Notes under the pieces: generated by a model | Seen by the model: only the letters and a program-made list of their open reading frames with translations | Database searches by the model: none | What the model was told of the DNA's origin: nothing | Virus record (IMG/VR): IMGVR_UViG_3300048574_000507 | Location: 1 to 27,096 of that record | Reading direction: 5' to 3' (one strand) | DNA from: a virus | Lineage: Duplodnaviria; Caudoviricetes | DNA: 27,096 nt | Made by a program: the position numbers and the translations under genes | Shown here: piece after piece, positions 2,204 to 27,096 of the stretch | Layout: every line of letters begins with the position of its first letter | How positions within the stretch are numbered: position 1 is the first letter of the stretch

Positions 2204-2830
2204 GTGAATAAGTTAATTCTGGCCACGATGCTGGCACTGGGGATCGTCGCCGCCACGGCTGGCAAGCTGGCCGATGATGCAATGTCGTTTCGGAATCCGG
2301 ATCGACTCATCGGTGGGTCACGGATCAACTTGAGGCCCTTGTTCACCTGGTGGACGAACGCGGTTCAGGTTAATCGGGATTCCCCCAACGCGGAGTTTGG
2401 TCGTCGTGTGCCAAAGGAGGTGGCAATGATGGATGCTATGATGGCGCAGCGGCCGCTGACTTCGTGGTCTCAAGTGATCGGATCGAAGGTGGCCGAGCGA
2501 GCCTCGGGCTGGATCGTTTCCGCGACGGTGTGTAGCTGGCCGGGTAAGGGGCAGAGCATGAAGATTTTTTTGAAGCATCCTCCCATTCCAGAAGAGCGAC
2601 AGGTGCTGGCACTACAACGGGAGAGAAAGGATCTGAGGGATAGGCGGGATCAGATAACGGGTGGCAATGTTCATCGGGCTGAATTACGGCGGGTTCAGAT
2701 TGAAAAGGAGCTGCTGAAGTATCCGACATCGCTGGACGTTGCGTATCGAATTGCTTTTTTTGCGATGAAAACAGGGGAAGTGTTTGAGGGGATGGAGGTT
2801 TTTGAGATGGGGCTGGTTTACGGGCAGTGA
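2204..2830 (+). CDS. Exported hypothetical protein (moron-like)
   Basis: Signal peptide MNKLILATMLALGIVAATA, GGAG upstream, short coiled coil. Confidence 0.75.
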   Translation: MNKLILATMLALGIVAATAGKLADDAMSFRNPDRLIGGSRINLRPLFTWWTNAVQVNRDSPNAEFGRRVPKEVAMMDAMMAQRPLTSWSQVIGSKVAERASGWIVSATVCSWPGKGQSMKIFLKHPPIPEERQVLALQRERKDLRDRRDQITGGNVHRAELRRVQIEKELLKYPTSLDVAYRIAFFAMKTGEVFEGMEVFEMGLVYGQ

Positions 2831-2846
2831 TGGGAGAGGGAAACCT

Positions 2847-3359
2847 ATGGGCAAAAGAGACATTGGGATGTTGGTTGGAGTTATGACAATCGCGGCGGCG
2901 ATTAGTCTGGGAAGTGCACATCCGGGAAGAACGGATGCCAGCGGTGGCCACACGGACAGAAGAACGGGCCAGTATCACTATCACGGTGGGGCGCGAACCA
3001 GCTCTTCACGATCTTCGGATTCTTTCACGCTCCCTGTAACTAAACGAGAGGCCGATGCCGTTCGCCCCGTCGTATCCAGGCCGTTGCCTCCGCCAGTGTC
3101 CAAACCAAAGACAGCGGATGAAATTTCGGCGATGCGCGAGAGGACGATTAAGTTCCGAATGGAACAGGCTACGAATGGGCTGCCCACGGCGCAGTGCGCT
3201 TTGGGGCAAAATTACCTCAATGGGACTGATGGTTTTGATACGAATAAAACCCTGGGAGTTTATTGGCTCACACAATCCGCAGCCCAGGGGAACTTGGAGG
3301 CTGAAGAGCTACTGAAGCGAGCCAAGCTGAAGAGTGAACCTTTGGAAAAATCGGAGTAA
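2847..3359 (+). CDS. Exported YHYH-motif protein with C-terminal Sel1-like repeat
   Basis: Signal peptide followed by HPGRTDASGGHTDRRTGQYHYH. C-terminal AQCALGQNYLNG...GVYWLTQSAAQGNLEA is Sel1-like. SD GGAGAGG before ATG 2847. Confidence 0.8.
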   Translation: MGKRDIGMLVGVMTIAAAISLGSAHPGRTDASGGHTDRRTGQYHYHGGARTSSSRSSDSFTLPVTKREADAVRPVVSRPLPPPVSKPKTADEISAMRERTIKFRMEQATNGLPTAQCALGQNYLNGTDGFDTNKTLGVYWLTQSAAQGNLEAEELLKRAKLKSEPLEKSE

Positions 3360-3608: not shown

Positions 3609-3804
3609 TCGGATGGTCTTCTGATGCGGGTTTTCAAGGGTGGAATGATGGTCGCCTATGCTAGGGAATACTGTTGGCAGGAGGTGTGTCATGATGCGGC
3701 CTGCATGAGAAATCATGGGTGTTAGTTGACGCGAGCAAGGTCCTCCGGGGGTGTGGCGCCTCCGGAGGATCCCGCGACCCAAACATTATCGAGCATTAAA
3801 AATC

Positions 3805-4320
3805 ATGAGCACTGAAAATTCATCTTCGGGAAATCTGGACGGTTTCAAAACGTTTCTGCAGGGCAAGAAGACTTACTTCGTGGCGTTGGTGGCCGGGCTG
3901 TATTTGCTGGGGTGCTGGGCGGGAATTTTTGAATTTGATCAAAAGGTTTTGGCCGGGCTTGGGTTTACGGGGCTGGTCACGCTGAGGGCGAGTCTGAAGG
4001 GCTTGTTGCTGCTAACGCTCTGCGGGGTTGTCCTGGTGGGCTCTGGATGCGCTCGGTTCAAAACGAAACAGGTTGATTCCAGTTATGAAGACAAAGACAA
4101 CGTCCCCCACCGCACGATCACCACGACCGTCACGGCCTCTACGTTCTTCGCGAGCACTTCGGAGCTCTCGAAGTTTAAGGCCAGCCAGACGGATAAGACC
4201 CAGTCGGCCTCCGTCGGATCCCTGAACCAGGTGAGCGACGGGACGAATGCGGTGGCGCTGGTGGACAAGATCACCGGGGCTGTGGTGGGGGCGGCGATCA
4301 AGGCGGCCGCTGGGAAGTGA
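3805..4320 (+). CDS. Holin-like membrane protein with an internal lipobox and soluble C-terminal domain
   Basis: LQGKKTY followed by two hydrophobic helices, then LLLLTLCGVVLVGSGC (lipobox-like) and a Ser/Thr-rich tail. First gene of the late operon. Confidence 0.6.
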   Translation: MSTENSSSGNLDGFKTFLQGKKTYFVALVAGLYLLGCWAGIFEFDQKVLAGLGFTGLVTLRASLKGLLLLTLCGVVLVGSGCARFKTKQVDSSYEDKDNVPHRTITTTVTASTFFASTSELSKFKASQTDKTQSASVGSLNQVSDGTNAVALVDKITGAVVGAAIKAAAGK

Positions 4321-11279: not shown

Positions 11280-12761
11280 ATGAAAAATCGGAAAAAACTG
11301 AATCGACGGAATGGCCGCATCGCAACCATTGGTTGGGTGTTGCTGGCATTGGTGGCGGTGTGTGTGCTGCCGGTATTGATTGCGGCCGCATTGGCAGCGC
11401 CGAAGAGCGCGGCTTTGGTGGCGACGTTTGGCCTGCTGCCCACACACATCCTGCGGGACGCATCCAGTGAGGGCGGCGGCGGTGTCGCCGGCGTGATGGA
11501 GAAAACCGCGAAGGCATTGGAATCGCTCGACGGCCGGCTGAAAGGTCTCGATAGCAAAGTGGCCGAGCTGGAAAAGAAGGGCGGCGATCCGGCGCTGAAG
11601 ACGGACATCGAGGGTCTGAAGACCAACGTGAATGAAATCAAGTCGGGCTTGGACGCGATCAAGAAGAACCGGCTGGAGAGCCGCATGCGCCCGGCAGTAT
11701 TGCGGGTGGGCGGGGCTGAGTCTCGCGGGTATGTGAGTGAGGAATGTGCGCGGGAGATTGCAGCGCATTTCATTTGTCACTGCGCTGCGAGCGGCAAACT
11801 GGAGGCGCTGTCGGCTAATTCGTCCACGCGGGATTCGTTGCTGGGTGAGGCTCGCGCCTCCCTGGGCATCACGGGCAAGGCCGCGCTCACGACTACGGAG
11901 ATTCCGCTGCCAGTAGTATATGGCGGTGAGATCAAGGAGTTGATCAGCCAGTTCGGGGTGATCCGTCGCAAGATGTCGCCCTACCCGATTGGCATGGGGA
12001 CGGCCCGGCCGGCACGGATGGGAACGCGTCCGGCGTTTGGCAGCATCGCGATGTCTGGCGCATTTGATGAGAAGGCGCCGACGATCACGTTCGCATCGCT
12101 GGAGTCGCACAAGCTCGGTGGTTTGGTGCGGTTGCCACGGGAGATCGACGAGCAGAGCATCGTGCCGATGGGCCAGTTCCTGGCGCGGTATGGCGCGGTG
12201 GAGTTTGCACGGGCCGAGGATCTCTGGGGATTCCTGGCGGATGGCACGGCCACTTATGAGTCGGTGAAGGGTGTGGCCGCAATTGCTGCGGATAACAACA
12301 AGGTGTTGTCGCTGGCAGCCGGCAAGACCAAGCCGAGCGATGCGACGCTGGAAGATTTCCGCGCGTTGCGCCGCCTGGTGAACAAGGCCGCGCTGAGCGG
12401 CGGTCTCTCCGCGTATTACCTGGATACGACCTGGGAGACTTCCCTGGCCCGATTCAAGACGCAGCAAGAGCCGCTGGTCTATCAACGGTTGCCGGATGGC
12501 AGTGCAACTCTCGATGGTTATCCCATCGTGTGGACGGATGTGCTGGAGCCTTATGGCACGGCAGCGGCCGCCAGCAAGTATCTGGCGGTGTTCGGCGCGC
12601 TCTCGTTCTGGTGGATGGGCGAGCATGGCAGCCCTCGGATCGATACGAGCGAGCATGTGTTCTTCGCGAATGATCAGCTGGCCACGCGGTTCATCGAGGA
12701 GATCGACTTTGATTACGCGGCTGCGGATGCGGTTGCGGTGATGAAGACGCCGGCGGCATAA
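11280..12761 (+). CDS. Major capsid protein (HK97 fold) with hydrophobic N-terminal leader and coiled-coil delta-like domain
   Basis: Follows the protease. Motifs KLGGLVRLPREIDEQS, FARAED, TLDGYPIVWTDVL and HVFFANDQLATRFIEEID. GGAG SD 8 nt before ATG 11280. Confidence 0.9.
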   Translation: MKNRKKLNRRNGRIATIGWVLLALVAVCVLPVLIAAALAAPKSAALVATFGLLPTHILRDASSEGGGGVAGVMEKTAKALESLDGRLKGLDSKVAELEKKGGDPALKTDIEGLKTNVNEIKSGLDAIKKNRLESRMRPAVLRVGGAESRGYVSEECAREIAAHFICHCAASGKLEALSANSSTRDSLLGEARASLGITGKAALTTTEIPLPVVYGGEIKELISQFGVIRRKMSPYPIGMGTARPARMGTRPAFGSIAMSGAFDEKAPTITFASLESHKLGGLVRLPREIDEQSIVPMGQFLARYGAVEFARAEDLWGFLADGTATYESVKGVAAIAADNNKVLSLAAGKTKPSDATLEDFRALRRLVNKAALSGGLSAYYLDTTWETSLARFKTQQEPLVYQRLPDGSATLDGYPIVWTDVLEPYGTAAAASKYLAVFGALSFWWMGEHGSPRIDTSEHVFFANDQLATRFIEEIDFDYAAADAVAVMKTPAA

Positions 12762-12817: not shown

Positions 12818-13393
12818 ATGAAAAATCTAAACAAAATTGGATTGAGCCTGGCGTTGGGGTGCCTGGTGGTTTCGGCGGGGGCGCAGTCGCTGCCGGAGTA
12901 TGTGACGAAGTCGGCGTCCGGATCGACCACCTGTGAGGTGTTCTTCCCGGCGATTCCGGATCGCCAGGTGCGGATTGTCACCGCGATCGCGACGAGCGAT
13001 AAGGCGGCTTCGGTGCTGTCGTTTCGGTCTGGGGCTACGCCTTACTCGGTGAGCGCGGCCACGGCGGCTGGTACCAATGTGGTGATCGCATACACCAACG
13101 GGCTGGCACCTAGCGATGTGATTGCGGGCCAGCAATCCGGGACTAACTGGTCGGCAGTGATTCACTCGTTTCCGCAGAGCACGAATGTGGCTGTCACTAC
13201 CACGATCAATGCGACGACGGTGGGATCGGAGGTCTACAAGATGAGCGCGGCTACGACGATCAAGGTGGCCGCAACTACGGCGGTCTACTCCGGACAGGCG
13301 ATCTACGTGGGGGCGCGGGGGCGTCCGGTGCGCGTGGTCCTGGACGGGACGAGCGCGTGCAGTCTGGATGCAATTTCGGCGCTATACGAGTAG
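12818..13393 (+). CDS. Signal-peptide-bearing beta-rich protein in the head-decoration position
   Basis: MKNLNKIGLSLALGCLVVSAGA|QS. Ala/Thr/Ser/Val-rich. Immediately after the capsid gene, with GGAG SD. Confidence 0.8.
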   Translation: MKNLNKIGLSLALGCLVVSAGAQSLPEYVTKSASGSTTCEVFFPAIPDRQVRIVTAIATSDKAASVLSFRSGATPYSVSAATAAGTNVVIAYTNGLAPSDVIAGQQSGTNWSAVIHSFPQSTNVAVTTTINATTVGSEVYKMSAATTIKVAATTAVYSGQAIYVGARGRPVRVVLDGTSACSLDAISALYE

Positions 13394-14393: not shown

Positions 14394-14954
14394 ATGAGTG
14401 ATGCAATTAAAATCGAGCTGAGCCAGGAGGCGCAAAAGATCATTGCACGCCTCGGCAGCGCGGATCACTTGATGAAGGCCGTGGTCGTTGAGACCAATCT
14501 TCAGAATCAGTTGACGGTGGATGCGATTGCGGAAAGACGGCTGTCGGGCAAAGGGCCGTTTCCGGTGGGGTTGCATCGGTTGGGTGAGCGGACGCACCGG
14601 CTACGGCCGTCACTCCGGAGGGCGGATGCGACGATTAGCGGGAGTGCGGTGGAGAGCTCTATCGGCACCAACGTGGTTTACGCGGGCGTGCATGAGTTTG
14701 GTTTCGATGGTGAGGTGACGGTGAGGCCGCATGCGCGCAAGCGTTTTGAGCGGCAGTCTTTCAACGGACTGGGCAAGCGAGTGGTTCACCGCAAGGTGCG
14801 CAAGGCGGACACATCGGTGGGGGTGTTCAAGCGCAAGATGAATATTCCCGCGCGGGCTCCGATCACAACGGGGGTTGAGGAGCGCCTGCCGATCCTGGGT
14901 GCGGCGTTGAGCCGGGCCATCGTGGATGCGTGGGAGCAGACTTTGCCGCAATGA
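14394..14954 (+). CDS. Virion morphogenesis/tail completion protein (Mu gpG-like)
   Basis: T.RLR.S, IGTNVVYAGVHEFG and MNIPAR motifs. Confidence 0.85.
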   Translation: MSDAIKIELSQEAQKIIARLGSADHLMKAVVVETNLQNQLTVDAIAERRLSGKGPFPVGLHRLGERTHRLRPSLRRADATISGSAVESSIGTNVVYAGVHEFGFDGEVTVRPHARKRFERQSFNGLGKRVVHRKVRKADTSVGVFKRKMNIPARAPITTGVEERLPILGAALSRAIVDAWEQTLPQ

Positions 14955-14958
14955 TTTT

Positions 14959-15708
14959 ATGTTTGGCGTTTTAGATATCATCGAACGGTTGCCTTTTGAG
15001 CTGCAGGCGCGCCTTGAGGCGGATGCGTTCTTCGCGGACATCCCGGTGCTGGTGGCTGAGGACTGGAAGGTGAAGGCGGCGATTGCGCGCAAGCAGGCGC
15101 TGTTCACTGAGAAGGGTGGTAAGCGCGGGGCGGCGGTGATCATTCTCCCGATGATCGGGGAGGATATCTACCCCAACCTGGCGTTTGGTCCGCTCACACT
15201 GCAGCCCGCGTTCCAGGTGATCGAGCACGGCGAGTTGAATAATGATCCGAAGGGCACGCGCAAATCGGCTCGGCGCATTGCCCGGCGCATTGTGTGTGTG
15301 GTGAAGCCGTTGTCCCTTGGCGGACTGGTGACGGAGTTTGTCGCGGGCAAACCGCTGATTGATTCGGTGGATCTGGAGGCGGAGCTGGGCGCGCTGGTCT
15401 CCGCGCTGCAGGTGAATTTCCAGACCATCGAGGCGGACGCCGAGGAGCTGTGCCAGGTGGCGGCGCCGCAGTTTGCAACATTCCCCGCGGAAACGCCGAA
15501 GGTGCAGATCACGTGTGCGACTGAGGGCGCAAGCATTTGGTATTCGCTGAATGATGAATATCCGGCGCCTGGTCGCGATGGGGCGATTGCTTACACCGCA
15601 CCGATTGATGTGCCGGTGAGTGGGCTGACGATCCGGGCGTGCGCGTTCAAGGCGGGGATGATCGATAGCGCGGTGCCGAGGGGGACGATCTCGGTGGATG
15701 GGGTTTAA
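14959..15708 (+). CDS. Putative tail terminator with C-terminal Fn3-associated (CHB_HEX_C-like) domain
   Basis: Position before the tail tube. C-terminal VAAPQF...VQITCATEGASIWYSLND...YTAPIDV...TIRACAFKAGMIDS. Confidence 0.65.
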   Translation: MFGVLDIIERLPFELQARLEADAFFADIPVLVAEDWKVKAAIARKQALFTEKGGKRGAAVIILPMIGEDIYPNLAFGPLTLQPAFQVIEHGELNNDPKGTRKSARRIARRIVCVVKPLSLGGLVTEFVAGKPLIDSVDLEAELGALVSALQVNFQTIEADAEELCQVAAPQFATFPAETPKVQITCATEGASIWYSLNDEYPAPGRDGAIAYTAPIDVPVSGLTIRACAFKAGMIDSAVPRGTISVDGV

Positions 15709-15780: not shown

Positions 15781-16707
15781 ATGGCAATTACTAGAGCTTC
15801 ATTGGGCCGGGGTCCGGCGATAGTCACGTTGGGCGGGGTAACGCTGTTCACGCGGGATGATATCGTGCCTCGGCATGCGCCGGTGTGGAATCCGGTTGCA
15901 TGTTCGCTTCACGGCCAGGTGGACAAGTTCAAGTCCGACCTGGTGATCAAACACTCGTTCACGCTGTTCGGGCATTGGTCGAATCTCTCGGTGCTGTTCC
16001 CCTCCGCGCTGATGAATCCATCGGTGGGCACCAGTCTGTTCGGCACGACGGATGCCGCGATGGTGATTCTGGCGCGAAATGGGGATCAGATCACGTACCA
16101 CAACTCGCGGATCACGAAGCTGATGGACCTCTTCCTCGGGGTGGATTCGGAGTTGTTCGCGGCGGCGATCGAGGTGACGTCGCTCCTGGCGAATAACAAG
16201 AACCCGGAGGACTCGGCGGCTTATTTCACGCGGGATACCGCGACGTACACGGAGACGAGCTTTGCCCTAACCACGTTCAAGAAGTCGCGGTTCTCGGCGG
16301 CATGGGGTGCGAAGACGGGGTTTACGTCGTTCGTGGGCGAGAAGGGTTTCAACGTGGGCTGGCAGCTGGATATCAAGCCACAGGTCGTGGATGGCCTGGG
16401 CACGGTGGATATGTATGTCGGCCCTGGCGGCCTGGTGGGTGGGCTGAAGTGTGTGCCGATTGGCCCGACGATGGCCCAGGTGGATACGCAGCAGGCAGTG
16501 GGGACGGCGCATGGCGCATTGCTGAGCGCGGGCGCGGCGGATCTGACGCTGACGGGCACCGGGGTTTCCGTGGTGCTGAAGAATGCGGGCATGACGGAAA
16601 GCGGGACGGCGTTTGGGGTGGATCCGCTGCGGGTGGGTGAGGTCGCGTGGGAAACGACGCGAGGGTTTGCATCGGGTGTGGCGGCGGCGGTGGCGACTGT
16701 TGCGTAG
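15781..16707 (+). CDS. Putative major tail tube protein
   Basis: Position, size, N-terminal GRGPAIVTLGG, beta-rich composition, AAGGA SD. No sheath gene is present. Confidence 0.65.
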   Translation: MAITRASLGRGPAIVTLGGVTLFTRDDIVPRHAPVWNPVACSLHGQVDKFKSDLVIKHSFTLFGHWSNLSVLFPSALMNPSVGTSLFGTTDAAMVILARNGDQITYHNSRITKLMDLFLGVDSELFAAAIEVTSLLANNKNPEDSAAYFTRDTATYTETSFALTTFKKSRFSAAWGAKTGFTSFVGEKGFNVGWQLDIKPQVVDGLGTVDMYVGPGGLVGGLKCVPIGPTMAQVDTQQAVGTAHGALLSAGAADLTLTGTGVSVVLKNAGMTESGTAFGVDPLRVGEVAWETTRGFASGVAAAVATVA

Positions 16708-16802: not shown

Positions 16803-16994
16803 ATGAAAGACAAAATCACAACGATTGAAGGGCTCATTAATGGGCTGTTAAAGGGGCCTCAAGGGCCGTTTGTAGATGGAGCCATCGGAGGCTTGAAGAC
16901 GGCCCACGATAATCTGCGGTGGCATATGGAGCGGGCTGCAGCGGCAAAAGCTATTGACCAGCAGCTCGCTGAAATCTCCGGAATGAAGAAGTGA
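16803..16994 (+). CDS. Small helical hypothetical protein
   Basis: Clean ORF, GTGA-coupled to the next gene. Confidence 0.65.
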   Translation: MKDKITTIEGLINGLLKGPQGPFVDGAIGGLKTAHDNLRWHMERAAAAKAIDQQLAEISGMKK

Positions 16995-17389
16995 AAGCCG
17001 AATGGACATCGACGACGCCGGTGGTCGCTAAGGTGACGCTGGGGGATGATGCGGCCAAGCATACGCTGGCCCTGGAGTCGCTGGGGGGCGGCGCGTCTGA
17101 GCAGGTGGTGCCGTTGTTCCGCGCGGCGAATCCGGCGCGGTTCATGCGCGGGAATAGCGCGGGCGAGGTGGTGATCTCGGCGGCGAAGTCGCATGAGTCC
17201 AGGGCGGCGGCCGCGACTTACTTCCTGGCGGAGTATGGCCGGATCAACCAGGTGGGGACGCTGGAGCTGTCGATTGATGCGACCAAGCTGACGTTTGCCT
17301 CGGCGACTTTGAAGGCGGTGACGGCCGTGGGGGTGGAGGGGTTGCGGTGGACGGTGCGTTACCAGTTTGGGATTACGACGGTTGCTTAA
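16991..17389 (+). CDS. Hypothetical beta-rich tail protein (possibly tube/Dit-like)
   Basis: Position in the tail module and alternating hydrophobic strands. The fold is a guess. Confidence 0.6.
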   Translation: MKAEWTSTTPVVAKVTLGDDAAKHTLALESLGGGASEQVVPLFRAANPARFMRGNSAGEVVISAAKSHESRAAAATYFLAEYGRINQVGTLELSIDATKLTFASATLKAVTAVGVEGLRWTVRYQFGITTVA

Positions 17390-17416
17390 CCGCAGAGAAC
17401 GCAGAGAACGCAGATA
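17389..17416 (+). repeat. 9-nt-period intergenic repeat (CCGCAGAGA ACGCAGAGA ACGCAGATA)
   Basis: Starts at the TAA of the upstream gene. Confidence 0.85.
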
Positions 17417-17422
17417 CAATTT

Positions 17423-18076
17423 ATGAAGATGGCATTGGGAATTATAGCTTTGATGGGAGTTATGGTGCTGGCTGCCTCGGGGGCGGAGGTGGTTTTCTCG
17501 ACCTTCCAGCTTAGTGGAGCGCCGAATAATCGACCGATCCAGATCGAGATGGATGGCGATGTGGTGCTCGCGAACACAAATCTTTTCTATAGCCGCACGA
17601 TGACGGTGCAGCCGGTGGCGGGCTTGGCGCGGACGAATTTGGTGTGCGCGAACTACATTGTGATCCTGGACGGGAAGCGGCTGAGGATGCCGGTACCGGC
17701 GGGGGATGGAGTTTATTCGGCGGCGGAGTTGATCACTTCGGGGGCGACGGTGATGAATGCGGCGCTGCCGGCGGCTTACCTACAGCAGGTGCAGGCAATG
17801 AGTAATGCGGTTCAGAGCCAGGTGTCCGCGCTGTTGGCGGCGGTGGCCGTAACGAACTCGACATCGACCACACTGCCCTGGAGCGGAGGAACAAGCGGGA
17901 CCGCATATCACATGGAGTTGGTTTTGGTGGACGGAGTGCCGCTAATCACACTTGAGCCTGGTGCGGGAACTGGAAGTTCGACGCTGCCTTGGTTGGGTCC
18001 GAGTGATGGGCACAATTATAAAGCGGTATTGGTGATGGTGGATGATGTGGCTGTTTTGGACTTAGAACAATTATGA
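17423..18076 (+). CDS. Signal-peptide protein with duplicated C-terminal motif
   Basis: MKMALGIIALMGVMVLAASGA|EV. Two S(T/S)TLPW.G...Y...LV.VD.V....LE units. Confidence 0.8.
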   Translation: MKMALGIIALMGVMVLAASGAEVVFSTFQLSGAPNNRPIQIEMDGDVVLANTNLFYSRTMTVQPVAGLARTNLVCANYIVILDGKRLRMPVPAGDGVYSAAELITSGATVMNAALPAAYLQQVQAMSNAVQSQVSALLAAVAVTNSTSTTLPWSGGTSGTAYHMELVLVDGVPLITLEPGAGTGSSTLPWLGPSDGHNYKAVLVMVDDVAVLDLEQL

Positions 18077-19725
18077 AACTTCAAACTCTATTAATAGGCG
18101 CCCTGCTCTTGGCGCTTAATGCGGGCGCGGCCTACTTGGGAGTAAATACGAACGGCACTATCACCGCACCTTTGAATTTTCCTGCGGCAAATGGGCTGGC
18201 GACCGTGCCCTATGTGGCCGCTCAGGTAGCGGAGCAGGCGGCGGCAACAGCGGCGGCGGTGAATACGGCCAGCAATGCGCTGGTGCAGCAGATCGTGGGT
18301 GGGTCTGCGACGAATGCGATCAATAATAATGGGGGATCGGGTTCGAACATTACGCTGAACGGCACCACGATGTTTTCGGGGTCGGGCGCGGGGCAGATCG
18401 GGTTTTATAACGCCAGTGGATCGACCCTTGTGGCAGGGTGGAACGGGAGTTTCTGGTATGGCATCGCTGCGGGGTTGACCGGGCTGAATGCGTCGTCGCT
18501 CGCGGTTGGGATTGTTCCGCCGGCGCGCCTCTCCGGCATCTCAACGAACGAGATGGACCCGGCGACGGATGCATTATATCGAGCGCAGGGTTCTGGTGGT
18601 GGGCTGGGTGGTGCAACGAACACGGCCAACACATGGTACCAACTGCAGACGTTTGCGGGTGGAATTGCGCTGCCGGGGCCGGTGGCTATTGGTGCGCTCT
18701 CGTTTGGGACGTTGTCGGGGACGAATCTCGTGGCAAACCTAGCGCAGAGCACGAATTTGCCGCGCACTGGAGTGCAGGGGCTGGAGAGTGCGCTGGCGCA
18801 GATGACCAACTCAATCACCGCTCTTGCTGGTGGGCCGACGAATGGGGTGAGCGCCGGGACTGCCACGAACATCGCTGACACGGTAGTGGCTCGGTCAGGG
18901 TTGGCGACGACGAACATGCTGAACGCGACGAACTCGGTGCTGGCCCAGAAGCAGCTCGACGGGACGAATCAACTGAATACCGCGCTGGTGGCGAAGATCA
19001 ATTTGGCTTCGAATGAGGTAGTGAAGAGCGAGGCGTGGTTGAGGCAAGCGGGAAGGCCGAATCTGTCGAATTGGGCGGGGGTCGCGACGAGTAGCAAATT
19101 GAGCGTGGGGCAGTCGATTCCGGTGCCAACGGGAGATTGGGTGGCGGTTTTCACAGATCCGTATGGCGCCGCAAACCTTCTCGAGTACTCGGACACGGAG
19201 GGGAGATGGGTGATTCCGGGGGCAATTGGGTTGCGGGTGCAGGATCAATTGATGGCGTATCAATTGTACGTGGAGTCGACCGCGACAATGTCTGGGAATT
19301 GTGAAGTGTGGGCGAATTTCGATGTGAATGGCGCCAGCCGGTTGACGGGTGTTTTGCTGCTGGATGATGGGCCGGCTGGGGCGACGGGGATGCAGGCTGT
19401 GGGGACGAACATTTTAACGCTGTTTGGCCCGATGAAATTTGAGGGCACAACCTACGCGGATTCGATATATTTTAGCACCGCAGAAATGCATCTATCGGGG
19501 GATCGCGTGATGAAGCTCCAGGACGCGGGCTGGGACGTGGATGGTTCGGTGACAGCGGCTGAGGGGTACTTTTTACCGTCCGCAACTCCTGCGAGCTGGC
19601 CGACTGCTCCCCGCACGATGGGCGAGGCTTACTTTGGGCAGTCGAACGGGGTGGTCTACGTGCTGACCAGCATTCCGGGCAGTGGGCAATGGGACAAAAC
19701 GAATCTGATCGCTTCACCTTACTGA
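18073..19725 (+). CDS. Signal-peptide, fibre-like protein (Gly/Ala/Thr/Asn-rich)
   Basis: MKLQTLLIGALLLALNAGA|AY. Fibre-type GLTGLNASSLAVGIVPPARL motif, helical stretches and a beta-rich C-terminus. Confidence 0.8.
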   Translation: MKLQTLLIGALLLALNAGAAYLGVNTNGTITAPLNFPAANGLATVPYVAAQVAEQAAATAAAVNTASNALVQQIVGGSATNAINNNGGSGSNITLNGTTMFSGSGAGQIGFYNASGSTLVAGWNGSFWYGIAAGLTGLNASSLAVGIVPPARLSGISTNEMDPATDALYRAQGSGGGLGGATNTANTWYQLQTFAGGIALPGPVAIGALSFGTLSGTNLVANLAQSTNLPRTGVQGLESALAQMTNSITALAGGPTNGVSAGTATNIADTVVARSGLATTNMLNATNSVLAQKQLDGTNQLNTALVAKINLASNEVVKSEAWLRQAGRPNLSNWAGVATSSKLSVGQSIPVPTGDWVAVFTDPYGAANLLEYSDTEGRWVIPGAIGLRVQDQLMAYQLYVESTATMSGNCEVWANFDVNGASRLTGVLLLDDGPAGATGMQAVGTNILTLFGPMKFEGTTYADSIYFSTAEMHLSGDRVMKLQDAGWDVDGSVTAAEGYFLPSATPASWPTAPRTMGEAYFGQSNGVVYVLTSIPGSGQWDKTNLIASPY

Positions 19726-19733
19726 TTTTTACC

Positions 19734-20867
19734 ATGAAAAAATTGATCTTCATTTTGATGGGTTTGGCGGCTGTAGCAAAGGGTTACGGCCAGGTCTATA
19801 TCACGGGCGGGGAGATGTCCGGCTTGAGCGGATCAGGCTCGGGCGGGGCGTCTGATTTTTCCGGGGTATGGACTTCGACCAACAACACGGAGTCCGCAGT
19901 GTGGACCAATTCCCTGGGGACAAATCGTGCGATTTGGATGCAGTCGTGGGTGGTTGGGTCGGGGCCGACAAATTGGTACAGCCGACAATCGGCGCATCTT
20001 TTTTGGCGAGGAACCGGGGTGACGCACCTGGCGGCGAGCAGTGCGATTGCGGTGAACCGGAGTGACGCGGGGATTACCACCAGGTGGGACACGAACACAC
20101 AGCCGGGGGATGCCGTGCTGTACGTCTCGGGGATGACAAATGAGAATATGGCATGGTCGTTTCGTGGTTTGATGACAACGACGACGAATGGGGTGGCGGC
20201 GGTGGCAAGCCCGTCAACTCCAACTCCAGTTGGGTGGTGGAAGTTGAACGATGCCAGCGGGATTACTGCGGTTGATTCAAGTGGAAATGGGCTGGCGGGG
20301 TATTTGTCAAACAGTCCGACGTGGGGGACGGGGCCAAATACCAACGGAGATATCGTGTTTTACAGCGGTAACACCAACCAGGCCATATTTTGCACTGCTA
20401 ATGCGCTTCTGAAGGCAACGAACTCCGGGACGATGATGTGCTGGATGAAAATGGCAAACAGTGTCGGATCATATCAGAATTTAATGTCGAACGGTTCAGC
20501 TGCTGGCAGCCAGGCGAATGGTGTTAATTTTCTAATACTCAATAGCAAATTGCTAGGCTCAATTAACAGTGGCACCACCCAACATGCAACCCTATCCGGC
20601 ACAAATACGATGGCAGTTGGGTCATGGTATCATGCAGCGTTTACCTGGGATGGGTCATTCTTGGAAATCTACCTGAACGGTGTGCCAAACAATACCAATC
20701 AGGCGCAGACATTCGCCCCCACTGCGGCGTACGGTCTCAAAATTGGAAGCGATGGGGCGGGTACGACCGGAACCTTTTTCCGGTCTGAAATTGACGATGC
20801 TCGGTTTTACACAAATGCGCTGAGTGCGTCTGACATTGCTGCAATATATGCAGCGGGAGCCAAATAG
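19734..20867 (+). CDS. Signal-peptide protein with C-terminal LamG/concanavalin-A-like domain
   Basis: MKKLIFILMGLAAVAKGYG|QV. LamG motifs VGWWKLNDASG...DSSGNG, WYHAAFTWDG...IYLNG and IDDARFYTNALS. Confidence 0.9.
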   Translation: MKKLIFILMGLAAVAKGYGQVYITGGEMSGLSGSGSGGASDFSGVWTSTNNTESAVWTNSLGTNRAIWMQSWVVGSGPTNWYSRQSAHLFWRGTGVTHLAASSAIAVNRSDAGITTRWDTNTQPGDAVLYVSGMTNENMAWSFRGLMTTTTNGVAAVASPSTPTPVGWWKLNDASGITAVDSSGNGLAGYLSNSPTWGTGPNTNGDIVFYSGNTNQAIFCTANALLKATNSGTMMCWMKMANSVGSYQNLMSNGSAAGSQANGVNFLILNSKLLGSINSGTTQHATLSGTNTMAVGSWYHAAFTWDGSFLEIYLNGVPNNTNQAQTFAPTAAYGLKIGSDGAGTTGTFFRSEIDDARFYTNALSASDIAAIYAAGAK

Positions 20868-20868
20868 C

Positions 20869-22437
20869 ATGAAGCTGATTTTAGCAATTGTGGCGATGGT
20901 CGCACTTCTCGTTCCGGTTCGGGCGGGAATCACAAATACCATCTCGTGTGATTATTTGGCTATATCCAACGCCATCGCCGTGGTCGGAGATGGTGACACG
21001 ATTCACATACAACCTGGCGCGTGCATGATGAGTAATAGTATTGTGCATGATCGTGCCGTGTCGTTCACTTTGCGTGGATCCGGAACTAATCTCACGACAC
21101 TGATTTCAACAAATTTAGCTCAGGTCATAGGATTTCGGAAGAACAGCAGCAACCTGTTGACCGTCTCCGACTTGAACTGCGTAGGTCACATCAATAATTC
21201 TTACGGATTTTTTGCGGTTGGAGCAAACGCACCATCCGTGAAAATGAATGGTCCAACAAGGTTCACGAGGATACAGATGACCAACTGCATCTATCGCGGT
21301 TTTGATGTTGGTGCCAGCGATTCCTGGGGGGTAATCGACCACTGCTATTTTGTCACGAAGGCCGGGGCCGCGTGTGAGCCATTCACTTTTCGCGGGAACG
21401 ATATTGTCTCTTGGACAAATAGCAACCCGATGGGGACCACGAACATGTGGTATGCAGAGGACAATTATTGCTACAATGGAAACAACGCAGGAAACGGGTT
21501 CTTTGATGCGTATGCCGGAGCGGCTTTTTGCATGAGGTACAATTTTCTGGACGGCAATGCTCCTTCAGGCGTTCACGGTTACGATTCGCAGTATACATCG
21601 ACGCGGTGGTGGGAAATCTACAACAATATTTTTACCAACATAACTCCGATAGTTTTGGCGATTGAAATTCGCGGCGGAACTGGAAATATCTACTCCAACA
21701 AGGTGTACGGAGCTGGCGACTTTCTTCAGCTTGCTTACTACCGATCATGCCTCTATGCCCATTCAATCGTGACTGGAATAGGAGTGCCGGGGGTTACAAA
21801 TACCATCGACTTTGGAGGAATCCAACCAACCAACGGGCAAACCATTGCGCTAGGCTTTAATGATGAGCTTTATACGTTCGAGACTACCCTTACCACGGTG
21901 AACAAGCGCGTTGCACGTGGGGCATCGTTGGCCGAATCTCTCACGAACCTGGGCGCAGCCTTGCAGCTTTCTGGTGGTGCCGGGACGAAATATGCGACCG
22001 GGATGACGCGGAATAGGCAATGGGTGCAATCGTCCGTTAGTGCTACGGAATTGAAGATTTTCAACTGCCTGGATGGCAACATCGACGGCACTGGGTATCC
22101 GGCAAATCAGCAGCCGGGCGTGATTCAGGCGTGGCCTTACGGAACAAATGCGCAGACGTTGCTACCGATTTACGTTTGGGGAAATATGCAAGATGGAACA
22201 AACGCAACGACAAACCTGAAAGACGACTCTGCGGTCTGTAATCACAACATCACTAATTTGGTGAAGCTTGGAAGGGATTATTTCAATTCGGCCAGGCCGG
22301 GATACACGCCGCTGGCATACCCTCACCCGTTGGTTTCGGGAGCCGAGATGCCACCATACGTTCCGCCGTCGGGCGCAGTCCTGAATGGGAGGGTGTCGGG
22401 GAGCACGACTGTCACGGGAAGGGTGGGGGTTAATTAA
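20869..22437 (+). CDS. Signal-peptide right-handed beta-helix (pectin-lyase-like) protein, possible depolymerase or adhesin
   Basis: MKLILAIVAMVALLVPVRA|GI. AI...GDTIHIQPG start, Asn/Cys ladders (IDHCYF, AEDNYC, MRYNF, IYNNIF, IYSN), C-terminal RDYFN...PGYTPLAYPHPL. Confidence 0.8.
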   Translation: MKLILAIVAMVALLVPVRAGITNTISCDYLAISNAIAVVGDGDTIHIQPGACMMSNSIVHDRAVSFTLRGSGTNLTTLISTNLAQVIGFRKNSSNLLTVSDLNCVGHINNSYGFFAVGANAPSVKMNGPTRFTRIQMTNCIYRGFDVGASDSWGVIDHCYFVTKAGAACEPFTFRGNDIVSWTNSNPMGTTNMWYAEDNYCYNGNNAGNGFFDAYAGAAFCMRYNFLDGNAPSGVHGYDSQYTSTRWWEIYNNIFTNITPIVLAIEIRGGTGNIYSNKVYGAGDFLQLAYYRSCLYAHSIVTGIGVPGVTNTIDFGGIQPTNGQTIALGFNDELYTFETTLTTVNKRVARGASLAESLTNLGAALQLSGGAGTKYATGMTRNRQWVQSSVSATELKIFNCLDGNIDGTGYPANQQPGVIQAWPYGTNAQTLLPIYVWGNMQDGTNATTNLKDDSAVCNHNITNLVKLGRDYFNSARPGYTPLAYPHPLVSGAEMPPYVPPSGAVLNGRVSGSTTVTGRVGVN

Positions 22438-23975
22438 TGCCCGACTTCAAAATCAATATCACGACGGACGCGAGCTCGGCTGTGGCAGGGTCACAGCAGG
22501 CGGCGGCGGGCTTCGAGAAGACGGCGGCGGCCGTGGGGAAGGCGGCGGATGAATCGGAGCGGTATGAGCAGGCGCTGCAAAAGATGGCAGCGGCGCAGGC
22601 GGAGGCGCAGGGCAAAATAGCCTCTCCCGAAGACGAAGCCCTGATGGCCAAAGCGGCACAGCGCAAGGCTGAGAACACGGAGTTTTCACGCCTGGCTAAG
22701 GAGGCCAATGATGAGCTGGCGGGGTCGGTTAAGAATGTCACCAAAGAGGAGGTGGAGGCAGCGCTCAAGACCGATAAGCTGACCAGCAACAAGAAGGACC
22801 TGAAGGAGGTCATAAAAAATTTAACGCGGGACTATCCTCCGTTGCGTGCGGCTGCGCTGCTGTTCCTCAATCCCGTGACCGCTGCAGCGACTTTGGCGGC
22901 GGCGGCATTTGCGGCGATCAAGTCGCAGATTGACCAGTTGAACGAGAGTTTAACTACGTCGCAATGGGAGGGTTACGGGGAGGCGGTGAAGGCGCGGAAA
23001 GCGGATTTTGAGGCGGCTGCGATGGGTGCGGCCGCTTTCGCGCGGCAGATGCAAACGATCAGGGACGCGACGGAATCGGCGGCTACCGCGAGTGAAAAGG
23101 TGACGAGTGTTTTCAGGGCTCAGATGTCCGCCCAGGACAAGTTGGACGCAGCCCGCAAGGCGCTTGAGGTCTCGCAGGCGAATGGGGAAAAGGATCCGGT
23201 CCGCAAGGCGCGATCGCTATTGGAGATCGAGGAGCGGTATGCCACGCGCAAACTTAAGAGGGATGAAGAAACGAGCCGATTCGAGATCAATGAGCAGCAT
23301 CGACGACTGGGCAATGAGGTGGTGACCGCGATGATGGCGGAGACGGCGGTCAAAGCGGCCGAAAAGAAGGCGCAGTCGATGAAGACTGAAAGCCAGGTGG
23401 CCAAAGAGCTGGAGAACGCACGGCAACGCCTGGCGGATATTGAGGCGGAGCGCAATGCCAAACAGACGCGGCTTGATGCACTGAGTGGCCAGACTTTTCT
23501 CTATGGAACGCAAGACCGGCAGCGATACGTGCTGTATAATCAATTGCAGAGTTTGGAGCAACAGAAGGCATTACAGCAAGGGATCGTGGGGAAAATGGAG
23601 ACGCGCGGGGCGGACCAGATCAACGCCTGGCGTGGGAACCAGGAGTATATCGAGAACATGCGCGGTGCGGGGCGCAACGCGATGGAGCGGGCGAACGGGA
23701 TCCGCGCGATGCTGCCGACGCAGGAACGGGTAGCGGGGATTGAGAGTGAGGCTCGACTGGGCGAGGCGCGGCTAGGCTCGGCAACTCGATTGACGGAGGC
23801 TGGAAACCAGGCTGAAGGGATCTTGCAAAAGCAGGTGGAAGAGGTCATCAAGTCGCGGGAACTGGATAGGGCGGGGGCTGAGTTGTTGTTGAAGGAATTG
23901 CAGGAGACTCGGGTGTTTAAAGCGGAAACGCAGAAACAATTGAGGGAAGTCTTGGGCAGGCCGGGCTCAATCTAG
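22437..23975 (+). CDS. Tape-measure-like protein (512 aa)
   Basis: N-terminal FKINITTDAS, Ala/Glu/Lys-rich helical body, one hydrophobic segment (AAALLFLNPVTAAATLAAAAFAAI). Confidence 0.7.
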   Translation: MPDFKINITTDASSAVAGSQQAAAGFEKTAAAVGKAADESERYEQALQKMAAAQAEAQGKIASPEDEALMAKAAQRKAENTEFSRLAKEANDELAGSVKNVTKEEVEAALKTDKLTSNKKDLKEVIKNLTRDYPPLRAAALLFLNPVTAAATLAAAAFAAIKSQIDQLNESLTTSQWEGYGEAVKARKADFEAAAMGAAAFARQMQTIRDATESAATASEKVTSVFRAQMSAQDKLDAARKALEVSQANGEKDPVRKARSLLEIEERYATRKLKRDEETSRFEINEQHRRLGNEVVTAMMAETAVKAAEKKAQSMKTESQVAKELENARQRLADIEAERNAKQTRLDALSGQTFLYGTQDRQRYVLYNQLQSLEQQKALQQGIVGKMETRGADQINAWRGNQEYIENMRGAGRNAMERANGIRAMLPTQERVAGIESEARLGEARLGSATRLTEAGNQAEGILQKQVEEVIKSRELDRAGAELLLKELQETRVFKAETQKQLREVLGRPGSI

Positions 23976-23976
23976 T

Positions 23977-25959
23977 ATGGCAACCTATTGGACGATTCAG
24001 GCGGGGTCGGTGGAGAAAACTTTGGCCGATTGGGGCGTGAGCGAGGACATCGTTCTTGAGATCACAAATCTCGAAATGGGGGTGCTGACGGTACCGGTAC
24101 CAGGGGCGAGCATTACTGATGATGCACTCTGGGATTTCGAGGCTGCGATAACTCTGTGGCGGGGTCGGTCGCTCAGCGCGGGGGTGTTTAGCGGTGGCGC
24201 GCGCGAGTTCCAAGGGACGCGGCTACTGCATATCCTGGATGGCGCGCCGGAGTTTGAGGGGGTGACCTACCAGTTCGGGGATCCGTGGTACCATATTCGG
24301 AGCTGCCCGTACCAACAGACGATTTACCGCTATGACGGGGATCCTGAGGATCTCACGGAGATCATGCAATCGAGCGTGATTTTGCTCCAGAAGGTGACGG
24401 GCGCCGGCACGTGGATTTTGAGGAACACGGGGGAGCAGATCGGGGACATCCTGCAGCATGTGCTGGATCAGTATTCCGCGCAATCGCTGGCCGCGCCGTT
24501 TCAGATCGGGACGATAGACGTGGCGGTGAATCTCCCGACCTACCAGGCGCAGGATATAACGTGCGCTGAGGCTATAGAGTATTGCCTCCGGTGCAGCCCG
24601 GATGCGCGGGTGGTTTTTGATCATTCGACCGCTCCGCCCACGGTGATGGTGAAGTCGCGGGGGAATTGCACGCCGGCGAGCGTGGCGATCGCGGACGGGG
24701 TGAAGCATGAGTCGATTCGGTTGGTGCCGCGCTATGACCTGCAGGCGCGCAGCGTGGTGATCCTGTTCAAGCAGCAGCATACGGTCGACGAGACGGCATG
24801 GATCGAGGTGGTGAAGCAGAAGTACGGCCCCCACGGCGCGAACAGTGCGCTGGATCCGGACGGGGGGCTGCGGGTGGTGCTCCAGACGGTGGAGATGAGC
24901 GGCTTTTCGCGGACGAGTGTGGTGGGGTCGCTGGAAACAGAGGCGGTGTCGAATTCGTTCGACTGGTGGAAGAAACACGTTCCAGAGCTTCAAAGTGGTC
25001 GCGTGGTGCCTGATGTGTATTATCCACTCGTTGACGGCACGTTCCAAATTAAGGACGAAGCGGGCGTTGCCGTTGACCTGGCTGATTATCCTCGGAAGCT
25101 GAAGGACGGGCACATCTGCGAGTGGATGCGAATTGACGGGAATCCGATTTTGAGCAAACAGGTGACGATTTCGGTGCTGGCGGCTTACCAGGAGATGAGC
25201 GCGGTCTCGGACGGCTTTCCGTTTAGCCAGGTGAAGAACAAACTATTGACCGCGAAACTGACTTTAACGAATGGGGTGACGGGGACGTATTCGGCGACGG
25301 CATCGGGCGCGGAGGCTGAGGAGATCCCGACCGGGCTGGCGCAGTCGATTTATGAATCGCTCGCTACCCTGCAATACGACGGCCAGGTGACGCTTGTGGA
25401 GGCTGAGGTGAGCTCCGCGGTGGGGATGGCTAACACGCTGAATCTGACCGGGGGGCGCACCGAATGGGCTACGATGGCCGCGCAGATTAACTCGATTAAG
25501 CGGGAGTACGGCACTGGCCGAACGACGATCACGCTGGGCCCGGCCCGCCCGCTGAGCGCGAGCGATTTGACCAGGTTATTTCTGATCAATCGGGGGCGCC
25601 GGGTATGGTCGGATCCGGGCACGCAGGCGCGGGGGGCGGTGTCGGGTGGTGGGAAGGTGACACTAGCCAAGAATCTGCCGAAAGAGAACACCGCAGCGGG
25701 CTTACCAATGCACCAACTCTTCAGCGTGGCGGCGCCTCCAGCCACGGGGGCGGCGATGATCCGGCTGAAGGCGTACGATGAGCCGGAGATTTCAATGCGG
25801 AAATACGATGCCTCGACCGGGGCGCCGGTGGATGGGACGGGTGGAATCTCGGTAACACTGACGGCGTGCGGAGCGAGGGTGCTGACGGTGCGCGAGGTGC
25901 CGATCTGCATCGACAACACGCTGAAACACATGTTGGTGATCGGCACGGAACCGTATTGA
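23977..25959 (+). CDS. Putative tail tip/baseplate hub protein
   Basis: Follows the tape measure gene. Hub-like segments (IGDILQHVL, TCAEAIEYCLR, INSIKREYGTGRTTITLG). Confidence 0.65.
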   Translation: MATYWTIQAGSVEKTLADWGVSEDIVLEITNLEMGVLTVPVPGASITDDALWDFEAAITLWRGRSLSAGVFSGGAREFQGTRLLHILDGAPEFEGVTYQFGDPWYHIRSCPYQQTIYRYDGDPEDLTEIMQSSVILLQKVTGAGTWILRNTGEQIGDILQHVLDQYSAQSLAAPFQIGTIDVAVNLPTYQAQDITCAEAIEYCLRCSPDARVVFDHSTAPPTVMVKSRGNCTPASVAIADGVKHESIRLVPRYDLQARSVVILFKQQHTVDETAWIEVVKQKYGPHGANSALDPDGGLRVVLQTVEMSGFSRTSVVGSLETEAVSNSFDWWKKHVPELQSGRVVPDVYYPLVDGTFQIKDEAGVAVDLADYPRKLKDGHICEWMRIDGNPILSKQVTISVLAAYQEMSAVSDGFPFSQVKNKLLTAKLTLTNGVTGTYSATASGAEAEEIPTGLAQSIYESLATLQYDGQVTLVEAEVSSAVGMANTLNLTGGRTEWATMAAQINSIKREYGTGRTTITLGPARPLSASDLTRLFLINRGRRVWSDPGTQARGAVSGGGKVTLAKNLPKENTAAGLPMHQLFSVAAPPATGAAMIRLKAYDEPEISMRKYDASTGAPVDGTGGISVTLTACGARVLTVREVPICIDNTLKHMLVIGTEPY

Positions 25960-25962
25960 GCT

Positions 25963-27096
25963 ATGGACACGATTGGCGATTGTACCTGCCAGAATGTGGC
26001 TGAGTGGTTTACGTCGTCCGCCGTGCATGCGTTTTTAGGGGAAGCGGAGGTGACGCCGGCAATGCGGGGGACGAAGATCTGGGCACCGGGGTATTCCGCA
26101 GCATATGATGCGGTCAACACGGTGCTGCTGGGGGTGCACGCTGGCGGGCACCAGGTGCAGAGGGATCCCACGTCGAAGTTCAGTTGCACACGGTATTTGT
26201 CGATTGAATTCGATGTCACGTTTGAGCGTTACAAATCGACGACGACTGAGGACGGTCCGTGGGTGCTGAATTGGACCGGCCGCATTGTGCGCAATCAAAC
26301 CGTGGACCAGGATACCGGGCAGGTCTGCAGTGAGACGATGACGTTTACGGGTCCGGCTGGCACGGGGACGTATTCATGGGCGATGGACATGGGCACGGGG
26401 ACGGTGACGGAGTCTCAGGTGGACTACCCTAGCGAGGAGTGGTACGGGTTTGACATGGGCTGGCTTTACACAGCTAGCGCAACGGCGTCGCTGGGTGCGT
26501 CTGGGGGCACTGCGGAGAGGTGGACGGGGGCGCTGGGCGGCGGGGAGTTCATGACCTGGTATAAATACCACGAATCTGGAACGCTGACATTGAGCGGCCC
26601 CTACACGATTTTCGATGCTTGCGCCGACGCGATTGGGATGCTCGATGAGGTGCCGTTTACGTTGGGTGCAACCTACACTGACGAAACCGATACGGAGCGC
26701 ACGGTTGCCGACGGCACGGGCTGTCAGGCCTCGTGGGTGCCCGCAGTGGCAAACGTGAGCGGAAAGCACTTGGTTTTGCAGTACCTGGAGTATGGAATTA
26801 GCGTCAACACGATTGAAGCTCCATACGGGGTAAAAGAAGCTTCTTTTGGCAGCGCAACTACCCGCGTTGCAAAGTCCCGATTCAGGAATGCTGGAGACGA
26901 TGTTTACGGCATCAAGAACATGACGGTGCCATGCGCCGGGGGAGCGGATTCAACCGATACTACAAAGACCTGCACCTCGGACGTCTTTGAGGACACATCC
27001 ACGTGGAAAACAATCGACTGGACGCACCTCGCGACTGGCTACGGTTATTGCTATGTCAGCCCATGCAGCGCATGGCCTCTGGAGTGGTGGCCTTAG
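25963..27096 (+). CDS. Hypothetical distal tail protein (Thr/Trp/Cys-rich)
   Basis: Closely spaced after the hub gene. No signal peptide and no recognisable domain. Confidence 0.65.
   Translation: MDTIGDCTCQNVAEWFTSSAVHAFLGEAEVTPAMRGTKIWAPGYSAAYDAVNTVLLGVHAGGHQVQRDPTSKFSCTRYLSIEFDVTFERYKSTTTEDGPWVLNWTGRIVRNQTVDQDTGQVCSETMTFTGPAGTGTYSWAMDMGTGTVTESQVDYPSEEWYGFDMGWLYTASATASLGASGGTAERWTGALGGGEFMTWYKYHESGTLTLSGPYTIFDACADAIGMLDEVPFTLGATYTDETDTERTVADGTGCQASWVPAVANVSGKHLVLQYLEYGISVNTIEAPYGVKEASFGSATTRVAKSRFRNAGDDVYGIKNMTVPCAGGADSTDTTKTCTSDVFEDTSTWKTIDWTHLATGYGYCYVSPCSAWPLEWWP

Follow-up and report, generated by a model that had tools for sequence, protein, structure and literature searches.

The virus record IMGVR_UViG_3300048574_000507 (Duplodnaviria; Caudoviricetes), that of a siphophage whose host probably belongs to the phylum Verrucomicrobiota, is 27 kb long, and the whole of it (27,096 nucleotides, positions 1 to 27,096) is referred to here as the window. 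Its late region encodes five proteins that open with a putative Sec-type leader: SP1 to SP4, a run of four genes within the tail module, and SPcap, directly after the major capsid gene (Table 1). By the established view, tailed phages assemble their particles in the cytoplasm. Judged from their sequences, the five leader-bearing proteins are very probably exported, and the account favored here, with moderate confidence, is that they would mature in the periplasm and be docked on the particle at lysis. A place on the virion is likely for SP1, whose mature part opens with a collar domain of the kind that surrounds the lambda tail tip, and for SPcap, because leaderless counterparts hold the same position. 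For SP2 to SP4, it is a nearly even matter that leans slightly to the negative.

Leaders of the Four-Gene Run and Their Conservation

A sequence-only reading of the window had described SP1 to SP4 as four consecutive, tightly coupled genes with signal peptides. The genes proved to be as described (217, 550, 377, and 522 amino acids [aa], respectively), and so did their junctions (an ATGA overlap, an 8-nt gap, a 1-nt gap, and a TAATG overlap with the gene at 22437) and the ends of their leaders (SGA/E, AGA/A, GYG/Q, and VRA/G, the slash marking the leader end). Leaders were called with a heuristic of our own for the n-, h-, and c-regions, not with SignalP, and chance was taken from 1000 shuffles. 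By this measure all four proteins carry the proposed Sec-type leaders (per-protein chance 0.017-0.043), with a basic n-region, an uncharged h-region and small residues at -3 and -1, and with neither a lipobox nor a twin arginine in any of the four. No further transmembrane segment was found in the mature parts of the leader-bearing proteins. When 20 other late-region proteins were screened in the same way, only the major capsid protein and SPcap scored positive, the latter being a fifth leader-bearing gene absent from the earlier reading. Between 15700 and 24000, a single promoter-like site was found against 4.0 expected, which is not decisive on lysogenic expression, and terminator-like sites are in excess (17 vs. 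7.2 expected), the five on the + strand all lying within coding sequence. The 33-nt gap before SP1 (17390-17422) contains a short tandem repeat of about 9 nt.

Conservation of the signal peptides in relatives had been named as a check, and the leaders are indeed conserved in chemistry across the clade. Sixty-eight loci were gathered through relatives of the tail tube protein; the leader census covers the window and 31 of these loci (32 in total), the other 37 being duplicates or short. Collar genes, that is, genes with the domain described below for SP1, number 25 in 20 loci of the census, 20 of them leader-positive by the heuristic, four more by eye and one unclear, and inspection by eye finds a hydrophobic leader in all 15 collar matches, duplicates among them, of the 37 loci outside the census. 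Among 63 collar relatives from databases, 55 include a leader region, 53 of these with an h-region; the residue at -1 is A, S, or G in 53 of the 55, and the small residues at -3 and -1 stand directly ahead of the collar domain. Gln occupies +1 in 51 of the 55 records, but the Q-rule was not used as evidence, the records forming one clade and Verrucomicrobia going unmentioned in the available part of its source (PMC5837995). In a tree of tube proteins whose locus labels, leader-bearing or not, were assigned by hand, the clade of the window (100/100) has leader-bearing fiber genes beside the tube gene in 23 of 23 loci; the other clade unites six loci without leader-bearing fibers and three with them, together with Akkermansia and Luteolibacter prophages.

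Several side observations concern the leaders of these loci. The proteins at the SP3 position in L015 (10534-11166) and L043 (14263-14880) start with twin-arginine-like leaders, their neighbors having leaders of the Sec type. L013, L014, L015, L017, L036, L042, and L043 are prophage-like loci that form a tight clade and resemble one another in their flanking genes (including a response regulator in L013 and L042); their tape-measure position is either empty or taken by a short gene of ~220 aa, and they possibly represent a domesticated or gene-transfer-agent-like element.

A Tail-Collar Domain Directly Behind the Leader of SP1

By its modeled structure, SP1 is a tail-collar fiber protein of the Stf/Bxb1 kind, set in a siphophage tail module. 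The collar family corresponds to the first ~90 mature residues of SP1 and starts directly after the leader. Structure prediction, which had been proposed as a check, models this mature N-terminus as a phage fiber collar domain with an AlphaFold2 confidence score (pLDDT) of 87. The best three Foldseek matches of the model are Bxb1 tail-tip chains, with an expectation value (E) of 5e-5 and a template modeling (TM) score of 0.75. In the VIA comparison, the best match is 9d93_Ka (Z 11.0, root-mean-square deviation [rmsd] 2.1, 80 residues aligned), followed by the A-1(L) neck fiber (10.6), Ur-lambda 9e7m (8.5), the XM1 neck (8.2), and the DEV collar (7.5); these best five are all phage fiber or collar chains, and the first non-phage match has a Z of 7.0. 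A profile search with the collar found the Bxb1 ‘tail collar fibers gp4’ (E 0.007), and the Atlas clusters for the collar are those of PF08400 (phage_tail_N). The Pfam HMMs returned no PF08400 match for the collar, and a search for relatives returned no match for the C-terminal part of SP1.

The closest known counterparts share the domain and differ in what precedes it. In lambda, 12 copies of StfN make up a collar at the gpV/gpM junction, i.e., between tube and distal tail as seen in Ur-lambda, and thereby encircles the tail tip (PMC12617516). Lambda Stf (PF08400 N-domain; PDB 9e7m; PMC12617516) resembles the SP1 family in having an N-terminal immunoglobulin (Ig)-like collar of ~90 aa, behind which come a short helix and then a distal part that varies, and the SP1 and Stf collars align with a Z of 8.5 and an rmsd of 2.6 over 82 residues. 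Unlike in SP1, the Stf collar starts at residue 1 and not behind a leader; moreover, the SP1 gene precedes the tape measure gene and its product is a stub of 196 aa. The Bxb1 tail collar fiber gp4 and spacer gp6 (PDB 9d93; by entry titles and molecule names) provide the best structural and profile match, although the Bxb1 chains align from residue 2, without a leader, and at an identity of 17-19%.

SP1 itself being a stub, a variable distal domain behind the collar is present in its relatives in L001, where it is an alpha-galactosidase, and in L002, where it is pectate-lyase-like; a YadA head occurs in L008 and L012, without a collar. By analogy, this swapping of distal domains behind an anchor resembles what is seen in receptor-binding proteins. 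A collar search of 301 class-level genomes gave six matches: one in the L013 prophage, two with leader plus collar beside capsid genes (L117 and L118), one with a leader in an unclear context (L120), one leaderless (L119) and with PHROG minor-tail matches, and one weak, partial host match. In L117 and L118, leader and collar are encoded directly after the major capsid gene, a neck-fiber-like position. L008, L009, L012, and L020 have a leaderless protein of 210-230 aa between g132, a conserved leaderless protein ahead of the fiber genes, and collar-less leader-bearing fibers, which may constitute a second anchoring scheme with a cytoplasmic adaptor.

SPcap and the Leader of the Major Capsid Protein

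SPcap has no PDB or PHROG match and belongs to no named family; its position suggests that it is likely a head decoration protein. In L003, L005, L012, and the podovirus-like L071, leader-bearing relatives follow the capsid gene. Among 401 genomes searched, four contained nine matches in total: six begin with a Met where the mature protein would start, one carries a leader, and of the remaining two, one is unclear in its start and the other was not recovered. The major capsid gene was confirmed directly upstream of three of the six leaderless relatives (L181, L183, and L186), and in L183 the leader is absent from the DNA as well. Leader-bearing and leaderless relatives thus occupy the same position, and the post-capsid family therefore has both cytoplasmic and leader-bearing forms.

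The major capsid protein has a hydrophobic leader of its own, of ~55 aa (11280-11450), which is also found in L001, L002, L003, and L012 and is absent from L004; it may serve as a membrane tether that the prohead protease cuts off. Membrane tethering may thus exist in the clade, and the leaders of SP1 to SP4 and SPcap could by the same token be tethers, uncleaved or cleaved by a phage protease, that hold assembly at the cytoplasmic face of the inner membrane. This is quite improbable: the leaders end in the small -3/-1 residues noted above, directly before the domain, and the capsid body lacks the Thr-Asn excess common to the five leader-bearing proteins and host exported proteins. In L006, L019, and L024, the hydrophobic leaders of capsid-region proteins precede a short, recurring motif that resembles Ala-Leu-Ala-Asn and may be cut by a phage protease.

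A Thr-Asn Signature Shared With Host Exported Proteins

In the five mature leader-bearing proteins, Thr-Asn is the most over-represented dipeptide, with 48 occurrences against 13.6 expected and a maximum of 27 in 5000 shuffles. The reverse dipeptide, Asn-Thr, is flat (ratio 1.03), and the Thr-Asn ratio of 13 cytoplasmic virion proteins is 1.13. Among proteins of the fiber slot in the related loci, the ratio is 3.16 in 20 leader-bearing proteins and 0.69 in 14 leaderless ones, these sets having been chosen by hand and leaving out near-duplicates and the ~250-aa SP3-like proteins of the L013 clade. Within the SPcap family, Thr-Asn occurs four to six times per protein with a leader and zero to one times without.

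In 800 kb of the host genome G001, Thr-Asn ranks first of 370 dipeptides in 79 leader-bearing proteins (ratio 1.85), whereas it is flat in Luteolibacter and Akkermansia metagenome-assembled genomes (0.82 and 0.82; 400 kb each). The excess is common to the leader-bearing phage proteins and the exported proteins of G001, and the phage proteins therefore look like exported proteins of the host lineage. As an observation on the host side, Thr-Asn is the most over-represented dipeptide in the exported proteins of this Verrucomicrobiae genome, which makes it a candidate lineage-specific modification motif. In the phage proteins, Thr-Asn may mark a modification site, most simply one of glycosylation, with a structural or compositional cause as the alternative. 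PEP-CTERM proteins (PMC1569441), which are alike in their richness in Thr, Ser, and Asn, were considered and rejected as a model, the leader-bearing proteins having no C-terminal anchor. Whatever its cause, the signature provides a simple marker for exported proteins of the host lineage.

SP2 to SP4 and Possible Action Away From the Virion

The labels given to the other three proteins by the sequence-only reading fared unequally. LamG stands for SP3 (PF13385, E 7e-22). The beta-helix of SP4 is weak, since two of its 39 relatives match PF13229 and SP4 itself does not. The fiber label of SP2 comes down to one short repeat that it has in common with the collar-fiber P0308; homologue searches returned no relatives of SP2, and no Pfam or PHROG family matched it. 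SP3 and SP4 have a low guanine-plus-cytosine (GC) content (0.48-0.50) and recur as a pair with leaders in the late operons of the podovirus-like L069 (duplicate L070) and L071.

SP4 has no sequence match in the PDB, and its alignment with host exported proteins begins at the mature N-terminus, without any known anchor seen. By the heuristic, 40 of its 46 closest relatives are leader-positive, as opposed to 1 of 120 tube relatives. Of 401 class-level genomes, 11 contain relatives of SP4, and the SP4 profile matched none of the five genomes G001-G005. In all six host loci with scanned neighbors, SP4 relatives adjoin genes for Wzy_C, GT2, an epimerase, an acyltransferase, or a deacetylase. Since its relatives lie in host polysaccharide clusters, SP4 is likely a captured host enzyme, a putative beta-helix acting on polysaccharide. 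Such an origin would fit a depolymerase role, and SP4 may be released instead of attached.

These neighborhoods, together with the low GC of SP3 and SP4 and their movement as a pair into podoviruses, are also what could be expected if the leader-bearing proteins were exported and acted off the virion: in the periplasm, on the host surface, or after release at lysis, they would strip or mask host polysaccharide as an escape aid or a superinfection block, the collar being repurposed for oligomerisation. For the set as a whole this is unlikely, though not negligible; for SP4 alone, off-virion action is evenly balanced with its opposite. Lambda Lom offers a precedent, being a signal-peptide protein encoded among tail genes (PMC12309495), and for the same reason the earlier argument that SP1 to SP4 are too tightly coupled to be morons is weak on its own, even though the junctions themselves stand. 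Lom differs in being an outer-membrane beta-barrel expressed in lysogeny (PMC12309495), while the SP proteins have no barrel match and one has a virion collar domain; the beta-barrel or membrane anchor of a Lom-like moron was found in none of them, SP1 being a collar and SP3 a LamG protein, with no transmembrane segment in the mature parts. In the MAT fibers of Bdellovibrio bacteriovorus, which are phage-fiber-like adhesins, a signal peptide leads straight into a conserved domain, and they are an example of such proteins used on the cell; unlike SP1 to SP4, they are chromosomal predator proteins, shown on the cell and encoded outside a virion operon (PMC10769870). No S74 domain was found by Pfam in the proteins of the window. 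Against action off the virion, the leader-bearing genes occupy the slot that leaderless tail genes hold in the sister clade, the mature parts lack a membrane anchor, and the collar domain is confined to the six matches in 301 genomes described above, with two beside capsid genes and one having minor-tail matches. In addition, the only fiber-like genes seen in L007 are leader-bearing, host-type genes coming after the hub.

Proposed Export, Maturation, and Docking at Lysis

In the favored account, the core head and tail would be built in the cytoplasm from proteins that are leaderless and poor in Thr-Asn, apart from the hydrophobic leader of the capsid protein. The five leader-bearing proteins would be exported by the host Sec system, their leaders would be cut by signal peptidase I, and their maturation in the periplasm would probably include glycosylation at Thr-Asn sites and, in SP4, disulfides. 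They would meet the particle once the inner membrane fails at lysis; SP1 collars would then ring the junction of tube and g132 in the manner of lambda Stf, and SPcap would bind the finished head. The weakest step is the last one, in which SP2, the LamG protein SP3 and the enzyme SP4 would be attached to the SP1 stub and form with it a branched appendage for host recognition. T4 long fibers, P22 tailspikes and the decoration proteins Hoc, Soc, and gpD bind in vitro to particles that are already complete, which makes such late docking plausible. The coat proteins pIII and pVIII of filamentous phages are virion proteins with Sec-type leaders that are anchored in the membrane and assembled during extrusion; the mature SP proteins differ in having no membrane anchor, and the core virion in being a cytoplasmic particle of the HK97 type. 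Of the claims made from the sequence at the outset, export is thus well supported, given the clade-wide leader chemistry and the host-like Thr-Asn signature, and joining of the virion is supported for SP1 and SPcap, while SP2 to SP4 may or may not take part in it.

Several findings weigh against this account. All signal peptide calls come from a single heuristic; the unclear census case, L016 (also L060), has an h-region and a cleavage-type site but no in-frame start codon ahead of them; and 8 of the 63 database records start within the collar domain, in 7 cases at an in-frame Met. On the structural side, the collar is a small Ig-like sandwich, a fold for which pilin and adhesin domains reach Z 6.4-7.0; g132 yielded no named family or solved relative in family and structure searches, and the docking site is placed by position. 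SP2 to SP4 have no recognizable docking domain, the relatives of SP4 are ordinary host exported proteins, and a leaderless conventional fiber possibly lies beyond the end of the window, which stops after the hub region. As for the Thr-Asn signature, no excess is seen in the ~250-aa SP3-like proteins of the L013 clade despite their leaders, and the ratio is also raised, at 1.39, in the 254 G001 proteins for which no leader was called. N-x-S/T is flat in the five mature proteins (ratio 0.88) and the STT3 oligosaccharyltransferase was found in none of five host genomes, which are partly incomplete stand-ins for the host of the window; classical PglB/STT3 N-glycosylation was rejected on these two counts.

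The records that start inside the collar domain bear on dual targeting as well, in which internal starts or leaky export would yield a leaderless cytoplasmic isoform that builds the virion, leaving the exported form with another role or none. The Met at which seven of them start lies ~10 residues into the collar of the L013 clade, SP1 has Met11 and Met14, and the missing start in L016 and L060 points the same way. Dual targeting nevertheless appears improbable: the Met of the L013 clade comes after strand 1 of the model, no Met lies between start and domain in L004 or L005, and the way in which the Thr-Asn excess tracks the leader within the SPcap family points to selection on the exported form.

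The components of the route from export to docking are of known kinds, and the route itself is new as far as the literature search reached; no published description of exported tailed-phage fibers or of a Thr-Asn sequon was found in the titles and abstracts listed, most subscription journals and all supplements lying outside the search. The present case contributes a collar match by structure, related proteins that have or lack the leader, the Thr-Asn signature, and a likely origin for SP4. If the route is true, it adds a compartment to virion morphogenesis in which fibers could gain periplasmic modifications, and it explains how host secreted enzymes, e.g., SP4 from polysaccharide clusters, are captured as receptor-binding parts with their folding route kept. 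Genes of this kind would be mistaken for morons by annotation pipelines. The idea is directly testable with the matched pairs that differ in the leader, for which the collar of L119 and the SPcap relatives of L181, L183, and L186 provide the leaderless members. A bolder version is doubtful: all outward-facing parts would be exported, glycosylated at a new Thr-Asn sequon by periplasmic machinery of the host and clipped on at lysis. If that were true, the particle would carry glycans made by the host, and Thr-Asn would be the hallmark of a protein modification system found throughout this lineage of Verrucomicrobia.

The Late Region and Neighboring Genes

Pfam and PHROG matches identify a terminase, a portal, a prohead protease, an HK97-type capsid protein, a head-tail adaptor, and neck genes among the head genes of the window. 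The two flanks that the sequence-only reading gave to the four-gene run differ in standing. The tail tube upstream is borne out by its model (pLDDT 90; Foldseek E 2e-8 to the two-domain tail tube of T5), and this T5-like fold marks the window as that of a siphophage; the tape measure protein, by comparison, is assigned from position and composition and has no Pfam or PHROG match. Nine tube loci derive from genomes, seven titled Verrucomicrobiota, one Kiritimatiellae, and one ‘Ca. Angelobacter,’ and cultured phage records contain no match to the tube, SP4, the collar, or SPcap. The leaderless g132 is, by position, distal-tail-like and a candidate docking partner of the collar. The putative hub protein has no named family or solved relative.

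Table 1. Positions of the leader-bearing genes and of neighboring late genes in the window.
Feature	Position	Strand	Description
Major capsid protein (PF05065)	11280..12761	+	Basic, hydrophobic N-terminal leader; Thr-Asn-poor body
SPcap	12818..13393	+	Leader 12818-12883; 169-aa protein directly after major capsid gene
Tail tube protein	15781..16707	+	Two-domain T5 pb6/p140-like fold, without leader
Conserved small protein	16803..16994	+	63 aa
g132	16991..17389	+	Conserved leaderless 132-aa protein ahead of fiber genes
SP1	17423..18076	+	Leader 17423-17485; tail-collar Ig-like domain ~17486-17758 (by model); Ala/Gln-rich linker; two C-terminal repeats of ~33 aa, ~17858-18073
SP2	18073..19725	+	Leader 18073-18129; 531-aa Thr-Asn-rich protein, likely fiber
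SP3	19734..20867	+	Leader 19734-19790; N-terminal part; C-terminal LamG/concanavalin-like domain, Pfam match ~20388-20840
SP4	20869..22437	+	Leader 20869-20925; 503-aa mature protein, 11 Cys
Putative tape measure protein	22437..23975	+	Without leader; by position and composition
Putative tail hub/tip protein	23977..25959	+	Without leader; by position
Cys-rich protein after hub	25963..27096	+	Leaderless; its stop codon is the window end

The Cys-rich protein at 25963-27096 has no relatives among 1354 fetched proteins, and comparable Cys-rich starts are found in L001 and L010. The gene at 14926-15708 likely encodes a tail terminator with a C-terminal Fn3-associated domain. No endolysin was recognized in the window. 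The product of 3751-4320, with several hydrophobic segments and a lipobox-like Cys, resembles by eye a holin- or spanin-like fusion and has a relative in L069 (13548-13841). Between the early region and the late operon (2204-3359) lie two genes whose products have hydrophobic N-termini, one with a Sel1 repeat, which are ordinary moron candidates.

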